Below are positions 11,980 through 37,071 of a DNA stretch of 56,098 nucleotides, piece by piece. Below the pieces are notes generated by a model that did no database searches, had not been told where the DNA came from, and was given only the letters and a program-made list of their open reading frames with translations. A program made the position numbers and the translations under genes. Where the stretch lies: assembly GCA_045593685.1 (NCBI GenBank), contig JAZNXD010000009.1, forward strand, positions 1-56,098. Reading direction: 5' to 3'. Every line of letters begins with the position of its first letter. Position 1 is the first letter of the stretch. Source of the stretch: Candidatus Enterousia sp. (GTDB taxonomy: Bacteria > Pseudomonadota > Alphaproteobacteria > Rs-D84).

Positions 11980-12236
11980 AAAAAATTAACCGCCACGGAA
12001 ATATGGCGGTCGGGGCGTTCAAAAAATCATACGTAAAAATGACCCCGTCGGCTTTTGGGGTTGCCCCCTGTTGTATGGCCGACGGCACCCCGACCCAGAA
12101 AGTGAAAACAGTCGGGAAGTTTCATAAAAAAAAGACGCATCCGCGTCAATCTTTATGCGGATATCAATGCAATAAAATATTGCATCGCTTACGTATGGGC
12201 TTTTTGACGACCCCGAACCCACATCCCTGCGGATTC
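11980..12236 (-). ncRNA. Structured leader RNA / attenuator (c4/CI-antisense-like), element E1
   Basis: Promoter TTGATT(12271-12266)-N17-TATCAT(12248-12243); 5' GNRA hairpin; long-range helix 12214-12189 with 12036-12012; internal hairpins; final terminator 12010-11980. Confidence 0.6.
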
Positions 12237-12271
12237 AAAAATATGATAAATCATTTGCCACTTGAAATCAA

Positions 12272-12296
12272 GAAAAAAACCGCCGATTGGCGGTTT
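12272..12296 (-). terminator. Intrinsic terminator of the small membrane protein gene
   Basis: AAACCGCC-AATC-GGCGGTTTTTTTC on the minus strand. Confidence 0.7.
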
Positions 12297-12302
12297 GTTA
12301 TA

Positions 12303-12530
12303 TTAACGACGGCGATACCCGTTGCTGTGTTGTGCACTGTTGCTGGAACGTTTTGATAAATAGCGCGCTGCAATCAAAATCAGCCATTCCAAAGACAACA
12401 AACCCATCGCCGCAATTTTATTTTCAAAACCGGCAACCCAACCCAATACATAAACCATCTGGGCAATGAACGAGATATACAATACACCAAATACGCCTGT
12501 AAAGAATACTTTTTTAACTTTTCCAAACAT
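12303..12530 (-). CDS. Small two-TM membrane protein
   Basis: AAGGA RBS before MFGKVKKVFF; two hydrophobic segments and a basic tail. Confidence 0.65.
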   Translation of the reverse strand: MFGKVKKVFFTGVFGVLYISFIAQMVYVLGWVAGFENKIAAMGLLSLEWLILIAARYLSKRSSNSAQHSNGYRRR

Positions 12531-12571
12531 TTCTATGTCCTTACGTTTTTTTTGCATTATAGATAGAATTA

Positions 12572-12912
12572 AATGCCGGGATTTCTGGTGCCATGTACCC
12601 GGCGAACACCGCAATCGCTAAAACGAACAGGGTTAACAATCGCCAACCGTGTTCAACGCCATATTAGGCAGCCATTGCAAGGCGAACATTGTCGTTCGCA
12701 GCGATTCTATCGCCATTCAGTTTTTAGTTGGCTTTTAACGACACCACGTCGGATTCAACCAATTTGTCTTTCATCGCCTGTCGAATCTATGTCAGCCCCA
12801 TAATCAAATGCGACCATACATCACATCAAATCATGGTGGAGCTGTGGGGTACCGCCCCCCAGTCCAAAACGACTATTTCACAACGGATTCAGAATCATCA
12901 CTGCAACGCAGC
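12572..12912 (-). ncRNA. ssrA: Two-piece (circularly permuted) tmRNA
   Basis: Acceptor piece ...GGACTGGGGGGCGGTACCCCACAGCTCCACCA ends at 12834; 34-nt intervening segment; coding piece starts GGGGCTGACATAGATTCGAC at 12799; tag frame ...ANDNVRLAMAA* (stop 12666-12664); promoter TTGCAA-N17-TATAAT (12947-12919). Confidence 0.93.
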
Positions 12913-12983
12913 CCACGAATTATAGCCTTTTATACTGGAAATTGCAAGTTTTTAGATTATAATGCATGACAAGAGGCAAAAAA

Positions 12984-33545: not shown

Positions 33546-33613
33546 TAAAAAGGGCTTGAAAATCAACAATTTTTGGTGTATATTGCCCCACGTTAACAAT
33601 AGAGGAAATTTCC

Positions 33614-34168
33614 ATGAACTATCCATATATGCCAAAATCAACCGCTTTGTGGTTAATTGAAAATACAGCGTTGACATTTGAACAAATCTCGGAATTCTGC
33701 GGTTTGCATGAACTTGAGGTTAAAAGTATTGCCGATGCAGAAACATATAAAATTCAACCATTAAATCCGATTTTAAGTGGCCAAGTTACGCGTGAAGATA
33801 TTGAACGTTGCGAAGCGGATGCGACTGCACGCCTGACATTGCGCAAGGAAATTATTGATGCCCAACAGAAACAGAACAAGCGTGGCGTTGGTTACACGCC
33901 AAAGTTGCACCGTCAAAATCGCTTGGGCGGTATTTTGTGGATTGTAAAAAATTATCCAGAATTATCCGATGGCCAGGTTGCGCGCCTGATGCGCAGTACA
34001 AACCCAACCGTTGCATCGGTTCGCAATAAAACGCATGCTTCTTATTCTGTAATCCAAATTCAAAGTCCGATTGTTTTGGGGTTGGTTTCTGAATCTGCGA
34101 TTCATGATGCAGTTGCCAAGGCGCAAAAGATGGCAAATGCCCCCAAAAAGAAAAAGAAGAAAAAATAA
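33614..34168 (+). CDS. trcR: DUF1013 / TrcR family transcription factor
   Basis: PYMPKSTALWLIENTALTFEQISEFCGLHELEV, YTP, ILWIVKNYPELSDGQV. Confidence 0.88.
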   Translation: MNYPYMPKSTALWLIENTALTFEQISEFCGLHELEVKSIADAETYKIQPLNPILSGQVTREDIERCEADATARLTLRKEIIDAQQKQNKRGVGYTPKLHRQNRLGGILWIVKNYPELSDGQVARLMRSTNPTVASVRNKTHASYSVIQIQSPIVLGLVSESAIHDAVAKAQKMANAPKKKKKKK

Positions 34169-34223
34169 TCACGGTAAATTATTAACTTTTTAAACAACGT
34201 AAACTTGCAACAAGGGTTAATTA

Positions 34224-36308
34224 ATGGCTAAGAAACTGGACGAAGCAACAAGACTTTTGATTGAGTCTTTGCCAGAAAACTTACAAAAATTGGCATCAAA
34301 CGCGATTGAAATTGGATACATGTCGCGTATGGACTTTGATTCCGCAACCGAAGCGGACGAAGTACCCGCCGAAGAGCATGATGAAGTTTTGGACTTTTTT
34401 CAACAGGACTTGGGACTGGAAATCCTGGAAATTGACAACTATCCCCAGGATTTAAACCGTTATTATGGTGCCGACGAAGATGACGGGCCACGCGATAAAA
34501 CGCGCAATTTATTAAATGCCGATGCAGAGCAGGTCGATGTAAACGACGACGACTATGAACATTATGCAAAACAGTTGGAACGCAGTCAGACAGGCGCCCT
34601 TGTTCTTGGGGTCCAGGATTCTGTTCAATCATATTTAAAACAGATTGGAACCGTGCAACTGTTAACGGCCGCCGGCGAAGTTGCCATTGCCCAACGTATC
34701 GAGGCTGCGTCCCGTCTGATGGTATATGGCCTGTGCGAAAGTCCCATGACAATCCAGGCTATGTTGGATTGGTATCAACAGTTATTAAATGAAGATATTC
34801 GTCTGCGCTATATCGTGAATCTAGAAGTCATGTATTCCAGTGAATCTGAACAAAAATCCCTGGCCGCCTTGTCCGAGGCCTTAAAGTCCAAGGGTGTGGA
34901 ACATGTGGACGAACTGGACGACGATGATTTGGACGATTTGGCGGATGCGTCTGTGGATTCTGATGAAGAAGACGAAGATGGTATGGACGAAGAAGACGGT
35001 ATCAAAAAAGAAGATACCCCACGCAGCACATCCGGCGTACCAATTCCCGTTATGGAAGAATCATTGATGCCGATGGTTATGGAACTGTTTTCCAAGATTA
35101 AGCGCATCTTTAACAGTATGCAAAAATTACAGGCCAAACGCTTGGAAAATCTGTTGTCGTCCGACACGCCCGATGCCGCACTGGAAAAGAAATACACAAA
35201 ACTTCGTCTGGAATTATTTGAACACGTCAGCAAGATTCGCCTGAACGACGACAGAATTGCCGAAATCTTGGAACAGTTGACCAAACGTGACCAGCTGTTA
35301 ATGGGGCTAGAAGGGAAATTGTTGCGCCTGGCCATGGCGAACAAGGTCAAACGCGAAGACTTCTTGGCCGAATATGTTGGCAATGAATTGAATCGTAACT
35401 GGGTTAAAAAATTGGCAAAAAGCAAAAATGCCGCCTGGGCAAACTTTGCAAAAAAGCACGAAGCAGACATTTTAAAGATTCAAGAAGACATAACCGCAAT
35501 CGCAACCGAAACCGGTCAACCGACCGCCGAATACAAAAAGGTTGTGGAATTGGTCCGCCGTGGCCAGGCCGAAGCCGCCCGCGCCAAACGCGAAATGATA
35601 GAAGCGAACCTGCGTCTTGTTATTAAATTTGCCAAAAAATCCAGCAACCGTGGCCTTGGGCTTGATTTTTCGGACCTGGTCCAGGATGGAAACATCGGCC
35701 TGATGAAGGCGGTTGATAAATTTGATTATCGTTTGGGAAATAAATTTTCAACATATGCAACCAACTGGATACAGCAGGGTATTTCGCGCAGCATCGCGGA
35801 CCAGGCCCGCACAATTCGTATCCCGGTACATATGATTGATAATATTCACAAAATCCAACGTGCATCGCGTCAATTTATGCATAAATACGGACGTCAGCCA
35901 ACCGCCGAAGAATTGTCCAAGATTATTTATCTGCCGGTTGACAAGATTCACAAGGCGATGAAGGTTAATTTGAAACCAATCTCGCTAGAAGCGCCCGTTG
36001 GCACCGAAGATGACAGTTCACGTATTGAAATTATCGCGGACGAAACGGCCAAGAATCCGTTTACATCCGCCGCGCAAAAGAATCTGCGTAAAATCGTTAC
36101 CCAGATTTTGTCGGAATTGGACCCCAAGGAAGAAACAGTCCTGCGTAAACGTTTCGGGATGAGTAATAACAAGGTTAACACCCTGGAAGAAGTTGGTGCC
36201 GACCTTAGTGTTACGCGTGAACGTGTTCGTCAGATTGAACAAAAGGCGCTGAATAAATTAAAGCATCCAACACGTGCACGTAAATTGCGCAGTTTCTTGG
36301 AAGATTAA
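34224..36308 (+). CDS. rpoD: RNA polymerase primary sigma factor
   Basis: Region 1.2 [59 protein letters not shown]...[10 protein letters not shown]. Confidence 0.96.
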
Positions 36309-36355
36309 TCTAACCGCCCCGCTATCTGCGGGGTATTTACATTATGGTGGCAGGT

Positions 36356-36949
36356 ATGAAAAAAGTATTATTGTTTTTTAATGGTGTATCGGGCAGTGGC
36401 AAAACATATTTTATACAAAACAATATCCCGTCCGGATTATTTTATAATTTGCGTTCGGCAACCACACGCCCCATGCGTGCCGGCGAATCCGAAGGTGCGC
36501 CATACTTTTTTCGTGACGAAGCATATTTTGATACAACGCCGCTGGCGACGTTTTTGTGGGTTAATCGTGCGATATGGCAACCCGGCGATAAAAAATGGCT
36601 GTATGGCGTTCCGGAATTTGAAATATATGAACACATGAATCAAAACTTAATCTATGATGTGATTGAACCGCAATACACACGTCAAATGATTGATTGGTTT
36701 TGCGCGCATAATTTAGATGCGCACTACGATTTCAAAATTGCATATTTTCTGCCGCCCGAAAACAATATGGATACGGTTCGCAAACGCGCCAACATGCCGG
36801 GGGACGCAACTGTGCGCACAAACAACACCTGTGCGCCCGCAGATTTTGCGCGGGCGAATCTGACACCGGATTATACGTTATCTCCGCGCAGCGGAATTTA
36901 TGATAAAAATTTAACCGAATTAATAAAAAATTTACAACGTATCCGATAA
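36356..36949 (+). CDS. Guanylate-kinase-like P-loop protein (divergent)
   Basis: GVSGSGKT, SATTRPMRAGESEGAPYFF, LYGVP; atypical C-terminal half. Confidence 0.7.
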   Translation: MKKVLLFFNGVSGSGKTYFIQNNIPSGLFYNLRSATTRPMRAGESEGAPYFFRDEAYFDTTPLATFLWVNRAIWQPGDKKWLYGVPEFEIYEHMNQNLIYDVIEPQYTRQMIDWFCAHNLDAHYDFKIAYFLPPENNMDTVRKRANMPGDATVRTNNTCAPADFARANLTPDYTLSPRSGIYDKNLTELIKNLQRIR

Positions 36950-36990
36950 TTTGAATTGAAATAATTATTTTCATATGCTAGGATACTCAT

Positions 36991-37071
36991 CGACATAACA
37001 GATTGTTATGTTGGGCGTCGAAACCCGTTATAAGGCATCACACCGTTTAATAACGGTATGTGTTTTATTTG
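36991..37071 (+). ncRNA. Short structured leader RNA, element E3
   Basis: TTGAAA-N17-TAGGAT promoter; CGACATAACA/TGTTATGTTG hairpin; GGG-CGTCGAAA-CCC hairpin; ACCGTT/AACGGT hairpin plus T-rich run before the AAAGGA RBS. Confidence 0.45.

Follow-up and report, generated by a model that had tools for sequence, protein, structure and literature searches.

What do the structured leaders in front of certain genes of an uncultured gut alphaproteobacterium do, and to which known RNAs are they related? The question is raised by three elements, termed E1, E2, and E3, located in the 56,098-nucleotide (nt) window analysed here, which corresponds to one whole contig (JAZNXD010000009.1) of the Candidatus Enterousia sp. 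assembly GCA_045593685.1. A first-pass annotation made from the sequence alone had presented them as a family of three c4/CI-like leader RNAs, free of any prophage and linked by antisense cross-talk, which would gate genes for cysteine-rich secreted proteins and for an XRE-type regulator; the sequences that it quoted for the three elements are indeed present where it had placed them (Table 1). The results reported below suggest that E1 and E2 are probably cis-acting two-state leaders attenuating transcription, assembled from c4, CI, IsrK, and sRNA-Xcc1 modules, and that E3 is a decayed copy having kept only the first module. The genome carrying the window (947,804 bp, 98.5% complete) belongs to Rs-D84, an uncultured order including the Enterousia genus, all members of which have reduced genomes according to PMC12306168.

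The three elements are homologous to one another, as had been proposed, but instead of forming a set of three they belong to a family of hundreds of copies. BLAST searches retrieved copies of E1 in all 24 sampled genomes of the genus and copies of E2 in 22 of them, with many copies of both in the present genome, where nhmmer detected 13 E1-type and 14 E2-type matches (among these 27, one pair is an identical sequence at two contig ends and one is a remnant). The spread was followed with two covariance models, R1, derived from 24 E2-type sequences, and R2, derived from the E1-type 3' module. R1 matches were obtained in 57 of 61 genus genomes, with at least 50 matches in some of them; at the level of the order, 86 of 101 genomes were positive, including 62 of the 63 belonging to the genus and members of four of the five other families, and in a class-wide sample 6 of 149 other genomes, all of 1.1-2.0 Mb. 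R2 was found in 92 of the 101 order genomes. In the present genome, R2 has 17 matches and the other model 14, two sets which may overlap. The number of leaders shows at least a tenfold spread between Enterousia species: six genus genomes of about 1 Mb (G222, G225, G226, G013, G193, and G198), have from 40 to at least 50 R1 matches, and the four of them sampled with R2 have 22-31.

The copies keep a constant position with respect to genes. An open reading frame with a ribosome-binding site follows 22 of the 27 nhmmer matches, its start lying at most 30 nt past the end of the match in 20 of these 22, and a gene is likewise found directly downstream of most of 75 model matches from other genomes. 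In this genome, the proteins encoded behind the leaders comprise signal-peptide proteins, five 72-residue XRE paralogs, one of which stands behind E2, two 61-residue helix-turn-helix proteins, and a glycosyltransferase-like protein, among others, while R1 matches elsewhere precede genes for signal-peptide, cysteine-rich, outer-membrane-like, pilin-like, and 60-74-residue helix-turn-helix proteins. The sigma70-like promoter announced in front of each of E1-E3 was recovered, that of E2 by a pattern search; at the level of the family, 20 of 23 copies of this genome have a promoter of the pattern TTGNNN-N16-18-TANNNT whose end lies 23-28 nt ahead of the GGGG motif, compared to an occurrence of the pattern in 7.7% of 5000 random 85-nt windows. 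The UAAG motif said to be shared by the three elements did not hold up, as it lies in a copy-specific linker that is different in nearly every copy.

Regarding structure, the folds of E1, E2, and E3 are all more stable than those of shuffled sequences (z = -8.3, -3.8, and -3.95, respectively, with 0 of 200 shuffles as stable in each case). When a plain MAFFT alignment of 25 E2-type sequences was submitted to RNAalifold, five helices were predicted, with compensatory changes in 16 of 34 pairs: the 5'-terminal hairpin P1; P2, a long-range helix in which the GGGG-loop region pairs with the strand directly preceding the terminator; P3, joining the linker to the loop of hairpin B; P4, which is the X1:X' hairpin; and the terminator itself. 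In this arrangement, hereafter state A, 91.1% of the cells of these 25 sequences are paired and 20 of 37 pairs are changed on both sides, a level reached by 0 of 500 shuffles, and pairing falls to 35-50% when the partners are slid along each other. Over 70 distinct sequences from many genomes, 95.5% of the cells are paired and 27 of 31 pairs covary; the X1:X' hairpin (98.0% paired, 5/6 pairs covarying) and the terminator (97.6%, 6/6) follow the same trend. The complementarity between the small hairpin and its target pointed out for E1 and E2 by the first-pass annotation is part of this state, since it is found in the minimum-free-energy fold, where the address module of E1 pairs with 12044-12012, and is kept by compensatory changes in relatives.

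A second set of pairings, state B, is conserved as well. The X':X2 helix is 100% paired in the 25 sequences and, while not included in the model, 97.7% paired in the 70, where 4 of its 7 pairs show changes in both strands; the four pairs of the hairpin B stem all covary in the latter set, and RNAalifold applied to the E1-type 3' modules alone returned the X':X2 closing helix together with hairpin A. X1, X', and X2 vary jointly across subfamilies and orders, at least eight versions being readable. Because X2 shares sequence, in nearly all copies, with the 5' arm of a hairpin that leads into a U-tract shortly before the gene, the X':X2 helix and the terminator are mutually exclusive. The mutually exclusive folds postulated from single sequences are thereby backed by covariation on both sides, and the leaders possess what an intrinsic-terminator attenuator should have, i.e., a segment with two exclusive partners, one of them over a terminator near the gene. 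The terminator-like hairpins reported before all three genes stand for E1 and E2, while that of E3 is weak and has a poor U-tract. Homologs and covariation in related genomes, on which the first-pass annotation had made its proposal depend, were both found.

The strands that pair in state A are, moreover, specific to each copy, the linker and the loop of hairpin B being different in nearly every one of them with their complementarity maintained. In terms of computed duplexes, the 5' module of E2-type leaders binds its own 3' module with a mean of -21.4 kcal/mol vs -11.1 kcal/mol for foreign ones, the own partner being the best in 24 of 25 cases; for E1-type leaders, the corresponding values are -24.9 and -14.5 kcal/mol, the own partner winning in 9 of 11 cases, of which one miss is a mis-parsed row and the other was beaten by its own ortholog. 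A blastn-short search for other genomic targets of the 3' address yielded nothing beyond the element itself, its paralogs, and chance matches of 10-13 nt. The advantage of state A over state B amounts to about 4 kcal/mol for transcripts ending short of the 3' arm of the terminator, and to about 10 kcal/mol for full leaders.

From these pairings, a working model can be proposed. Transcription would start at the element's own promoter and the 5' hairpin would cap the RNA; next would come the 5' address module, whose complement consists of the hairpin B loop and the junction strand of its own 3' core. In state A, the more stable one and the presumed default, the 5' address would zip onto the 3' core as it emerges, X1 would hold X', and the 3' half of X2 would form the terminator, so that polymerase would stop 15-30 nt before the gene. 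In state B, the 5' address would instead stay in its own small hairpin, hairpin B would form, and X':X2 would close a three-way junction of the sRNA-Xcc1 type, thereby taking away the 5' arm of the terminator and letting polymerase read into the gene. Such read-through would require that the 5' address be kept away or that the junction be stabilised, and an RNA or protein with either effect could serve as the trigger. In this context, the IsrK leader of the Salmonella Gifsy-1 prophage is of interest: it adopts two alternative structures, the inactive one being more stable, its terminator is partly read through, and its short form acts in trans on its own long form (PMC4825925). By analogy, an Enterousia leader could be switched in trans by its own short RNA, a role to which copy-specific addresses would be suited.

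Several points weigh against this model. State B is never the minimum and is 4-10 kcal/mol less stable in nearly all copies, some factor being therefore needed to reach it. The small 5' hairpin is weak, with 3-4 pairs and almost no covariation of its own, and the terminators are short (4-6 G-C-rich pairs), that of E3 lacking a proper U-tract. The 70-sequence alignment was fitted to the structure of the model, and therefore leans towards it, with the exception of X':X2, which lies outside the model. All Rfam matches of E1-E3 and their paralogs are below the curated thresholds. Finally, E1 and E2 are covered by none of the assembled contigs of four metatranscriptome runs, which share 5-13% of the words of positions 11000-16000 of the window.

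As regards the origin of the core, the family that comes closest is sRNA-Xcc1 (RF02221), first found in Xanthomonas campestris and annotated in many genomes as a trans-acting, virulence-linked small RNA. Nine of 20 copies tested in this genome, from both types, match its model (E <= 0.1), with scores of 33.4-46.8 bits; the alignment spans model positions 1-87 in each of the nine, none reaches the cut-off of 53 bits, and no other Rfam family recurs. The 3' core of E1 scores 38.5 bits (E 2.5e-5, model 1-87) and two E2-type paralogs (L056 and L059) score 37 bits, while a whole-genome search gave five matches, none over the cut-off. The full-model alignment and the AUACAA loop expected of the three-way junction, made of a closing helix, hairpin A, and hairpin B, are thus both present. 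In the opposite direction, R1 finds five of 17 sRNA-Xcc1 loci of other Alphaproteobacteria, namely L078 (25.2 bits, E 1.9e-5), L074, L067 (three times), L073, and L068, several of them over their whole length, 5' module included, and the three copies at L067 exceed the Rfam cut-off for RF02221. These copies stand in tandem at 994-nt spacing (G054:C1:749745-751817). Among 151 sampled alphaproteobacterial genomes, 18 match RF02221, five above the cut-off, often with several or tandem copies; for Xylella, five copies in tandem have been reported (PMC12189769).

The resemblance extends beyond the core. By eye, five sRNA-Xcc1 loci (L065, L083, L071, L067, and L072) display an upstream small hairpin and linker complementary to the hairpin B loop and junction strand, and a second copy of both sequences downstream, by the ribosome-binding site. 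An ungapped complementarity score over the 17 loci gave 23.4 for cognate vs 19.2 for other pairs upstream and 20.2 vs 18.2 downstream, the signal being clear in about 8 of 17 and 6 of 17 loci, respectively, and many loci indistinguishable; RNAduplex on the long flanks was too noisy in these G+C-rich genomes. Like the Enterousia leaders, sRNA-Xcc1 is located upstream of and co-oriented with a gene, reportedly symE in the case of integron cassettes and, in APSE phages, an ORF6N gene (bioRxiv 10.1101/2025.06.18.660453 and 10.1101/2020.03.17.996009), and it is multicopy in some genomes (PMC12189769). The Enterousia copies differ in that they add X1 and a true terminator fused to X2, have no downstream copy of the target near the ribosome-binding site, carry a shortened hairpin A when of the E2 type, and are chromosomal, outside integrons and prophages, at tens per genome.

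The comparison with c4 and CI made by the first-pass annotation is accordingly apt for the sRNA-Xcc1-like core and the c4-like sites, whereas the C4 model itself (RF01695), which had been named for searching, matches none of E1, E2, and E3 up to E = 10. The layout of c4 in phage P1 is reportedly a1 b1 - c4 - a2 b2, as described by Citron and Schuster in 1990. The Enterousia leaders share with P1/P7 c4 an antisense RNA placed inside the leader of the controlled gene, the complementary sites upstream in the same transcript, which are documented here by the covariation of P2 and P3 and by the own-partner preference, and, in E1-type copies, a tRNA-like stem with CCA. In contrast, they have no a2/b2 sites over the ribosome-binding site, the X1 segment and the terminator fused to X2 standing in their place: a search for a copy-specific target of this kind gave -15.1 kcal/mol for own vs -14.0 kcal/mol for foreign partners, with scattered ranks (n = 24). 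The outcome would also differ, being an intrinsic terminator here and translational repression with Rho-dependent polarity in c4, and no immunity operon is found around the leaders. For APSE, the APSE preprint (bioRxiv) describes a'/b' antisense regions and a target upstream of ant.

The CI RNA of phage P4 pairs with seqA upstream and seqC downstream and thereby causes premature transcription termination (PMC4825925), the former pairing following the very logic of state A, in which an embedded antisense RNA meets its upstream complement. Unlike the Enterousia leaders, whose pairing takes place in cis within one leader through copy-specific addresses, CI RNA is processed, acts on nascent transcripts, and has the downstream seqC. 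IsrK (RF01394) shows three hairpins, i.e., a 5' one, a small G-rich one, and a terminator, a shape shared by E3 and by the 5' part of E1. The matches, which coincide with the full extent of E2 and E3, are weak compared to the cut-off of 50 bits, with 21.3 bits for E2 (model 1-77; E 0.01 in a 261-base scan and 0.15 over 3.8 kb) and 15.6 bits for E3 (36993-37070, model 1-77, E 0.2), and IsrK is a single prophage locus which controls the translation of orf45, not termination by its own core.

E3 deserves separate treatment, since the first-pass annotation had assigned it a role in trans on E1. Its small hairpin and linker are identical, over 27 of 27 bases, to the corresponding module of a complete E2-type leader on contig C23 of this genome (G000:C23:44149-44175), its hairpin aligns with the terminator of that C23 leader, and the proteins encoded behind the two are paralogs (29% identity, E 6e-34). 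Because of these three agreements, E3 is a shortened copy, namely a deletion derivative from which about 105 nt are gone, with X1, X', both hairpins (A and B), and half of X2. Another remnant limited to the 5' module, with a P1-like and a small hairpin and no 3' core, is located at G000:C18:13027-13094 (L050). As for the cross-talk, it finds no support beyond a computed duplex of -21.1 kcal/mol between the 5' module of E3 and the 3' target of E1, to be compared with -19.4 kcal/mol for the 3' target of the C23 leader and -26.2 kcal/mol for the E1 module on its own target, and the address of E3 is that of the C23 leader, not that of E1. The antisense network remains in this sense unproven: each address fits its own partner best, which favours self-addressing over general cross-talk.

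A broader version of this idea is nevertheless worth stating, even if it is rather doubtful: short or processed RNAs of the same or a paralogous locus could pair with nascent leaders and flip them, these leaders acting as locks and the short RNAs as keys in an Hfq-independent, RNA-only network of tens of locus-specific switches. The keys may be 5'-module RNAs of the E3 type, E1-type RNAs that stop at the internal terminator, or sRNA-Xcc1-like cores after excision, and E3 itself may be a trans-acting key, its address being equal to that of the C23 leader and also fitting the E1 target. If true, variable or mutually exclusive expression of surface proteins, that is, an RNA-based phase variation, could be at work in a bacterium of about 900 genes.

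Among the explanations which dispense with attenuation, it is unlikely that the elements are stand-alone genes for trans-acting small RNAs, in which the terminator would merely end the RNA and the gene would be expressed independently or by leaky read-through. Each element does have its own promoter and terminator, sRNA-Xcc1 was first described in this way and, in Xanthomonas, was reported to have a length of about 88-100 nt when detected (PMC2996969), and E3, as well as E1 up to its internal terminator, would yield short IsrK-like RNAs. Yet the elements are always co-oriented with and abutting a gene, no second promoter is evident in the 15-30 nt between terminator and gene, each copy has its strongest complementarity with itself, the genome-wide search with the 3' address having given no other targets, and no gene for Hfq or ProQ was found in the 98.5%-complete genome.

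Just as unlikely is the view that the P2/P3 duplex and the tRNA-like X':X2 stem with its RCCA are processing signals for RNase III or RNase P which set the 5' end, stability, or translation of the mRNA, the hairpin being a stabiliser. Rho and RNase III are both encoded in the genome, the latter being in line with this view, the precursor of c4 RNA is reportedly a substrate of RNase P (PMC11143913), G/A-CCA directly follows X2 in E1-type copies (by eye), and the CCUCC of X2 could mask the Shine-Dalgarno sequence, although by a generic pairing of about -14 to -15 kcal/mol with any partner. The CCA is, however, mostly missing from E2-type copies, and a pure processing site would need neither the covariation of X1, X', and X2 as a three-part attenuator nor the placement of X2 over a hairpin and U-tract.

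More improbable still, the three-way junction could be a riboswitch aptamer for a small molecule or second messenger, the 5' address being part of its expression platform. A multicopy leader with terminator/antiterminator logic in front of surface-protein genes, with a conserved unpaired loop on hairpin A and conserved junction bases, would suit such a role; against it, hairpin A differs between E1-type and E2-type copies, the core is a member of an antisense-RNA family, copy-specific addresses are a mark of RNA-RNA recognition, and no Rfam riboswitch family was matched. The last view, according to which the copies would be selfish, dispersed repeats akin to miniature inverted-repeat transposable elements and devoid of RNA function, is hardly credible and was rejected because of covariation and fixed orientation: many dispersed copies per genome and, weakly, two RNA-run contigs that join 11160 to 12273 speak for it, but the copies diverge through compensatory changes that keep several helices, lie at a fixed orientation and distance to the gene with the promoter as part of the unit, and neither terminal inverted repeats nor target duplications were seen.

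Should the attenuation model hold, an uncultured gut alphaproteobacterium of 0.9-1 Mb would have placed a sizeable share of its genes for surface proteins and small regulators under a single type of RNA switch borrowed from phage immunity systems, the number of copies reaching 50 or more in sister species, which would be, to our knowledge, among the densest uses of one cis-regulatory RNA family. The results also cast sRNA-Xcc1 in a new light, namely as the central part of a leader cassette that resembles c4 and has matching sites on its upstream and downstream sides. No description of the Enterousia leader family was found among the papers listed for Enterousia, sRNA-Xcc1, or the c4/seqA/CI attenuators.

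Table 1. Features of the leaders E1, E2, and E3 and of the genes behind them (window positions).
Feature	Position	Strand	Basis or remark
E1 promoter, TTGATT-N17-TATCAT	12271-12243	(-)	promoter scan
E1 P1, 5'-terminal hairpin	12215..12236	(-)	fold; kept in E1-type copies
E1 5' address module: GGGG-loop-CCC hairpin (a1-like) and copy-specific linker (b1-like)	12188..12214	(-)	
E1-type insert: variable hairpin and internal terminator (stem 12147-12134, U8 to 12126)	12126..12187	(-)	
E1 X1:X' hairpin, putative anti-antiterminator (X1 12116-12111, X' 12096-12088)	12088..12116	(-)	fold; X1:X' covariation in the family
E1 sRNA-Xcc1-like three-way junction: X':X2 closing helix, hairpin A with AUACAA, hairpin B	12000..12095	(-)	
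E1 X2 (12015-12008), overlapping terminator T2 (12011-11988), and U-tract	11981..12015	(-)	
Gene behind E1: 259 aa, hydrophobic N-terminus, 14 Cys (5.4%)	11200..11979	(-)	no Pfam family
E2 promoter, TTGCGT-N17-TATAAT	15625-15597	(-)	pattern TTGNNN-N16-18-TANNNT; missed by simple scan
E2 P1, 5'-terminal hairpin	15573..15590	(-)	4/6 pairs changed on both sides
E2 5' address module: GGGG-loop-CCUC and linker	15550..15572	(-)	P2 and P3 with 15501-15475
E2 X1:X' hairpin (X1 15545-15539, X' 15535-15527)	15527..15545	(-)	fold and covariation
E2 sRNA-Xcc1-like core: X', hairpin A (conserved loop), hairpin B, junction strand, X2	15470..15535	(-)	
E2 terminator hairpin (15473-15455) and U-tract	15449..15473	(-)	6/6 pairs changed on both sides
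Gene behind E2: 72-aa XRE-type helix-turn-helix protein	15207..15425	(-)	
E3 promoter, TTGAAA-N17-TAGGAT, with an upstream TG (TG-extended)	36956..36984	(+)	promoter scan
E3 P1 hairpin (36991-37013) and 5' address module (37013-37035)	36991..37035	(+)	
E3 remnant terminator hairpin (weak, 37042-37057), poor U-tract	37042..37071	(+)	whole 3' core missing
Gene behind E3: 403 aa, hydrophobic, signal-like N-terminus, 16 Cys (4.0%)	37085..38296	(+)	

The internal terminator of E1, absent from the first-pass annotation, belongs to an insert that is kept in E1-type paralogs with one G-U to G-C change (by eye). Upstream of it, an AUCCGC segment, also kept in paralogs (by eye), could pair with part of this terminator, and both could possibly form a second small attenuator. 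A 32-codon frame running over X1 was considered as a leader peptide of E1 and dropped, being by eye open in one paralog, closed in another, and devoid of a ribosome-binding site.

The location of E1-E3 outside a prophage, as initially claimed, is borne out by their surroundings, since the nearby genes with a Pfam match are of housekeeping nature (Obg, rubrerythrin, M48 peptidase, RpoD, TrcR, TsaB-like, and GNAT proteins), with no phage gene among them, and transfer-messenger RNA (tmRNA) is a further neighbour. At Rfam gathering scores, the only matches in the window are this tmRNA and four tRNAs. Behind the E1 gene lies a gene for a Lon-like protein of 594 aa (9359-11143(-)), with the Lon substrate-binding, AAA, and lid domains and no Pfam match to the protease domain, adjoined by a 128-aa open reading frame (8976-9362) without a Pfam family. 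In contigs of two metatranscriptome runs, position 11160 is joined to 12273 with 25-26 other letters between them; this is a weak hint that E1 and its cysteine-rich gene are absent in related strains, one side of the junction spanning only 30-36 nt and falling on a repeated terminator. The terminator sequence located upstream of E1 (12273-12299(-)), of the palindromic AAACCGCC...GGCGGTTT type, recurs at 90-100% identity in many places of the genus genomes (BLAST) and may represent either a widespread terminator or a small repeat in its own right. The tmRNA is of the permuted (two-piece) alpha type (12573-12927(-), tag AANDNVRLAMAA), and some 300 nt separate it from the start of the E1 promoter, which lies downstream, past the terminator at 12296-12277.

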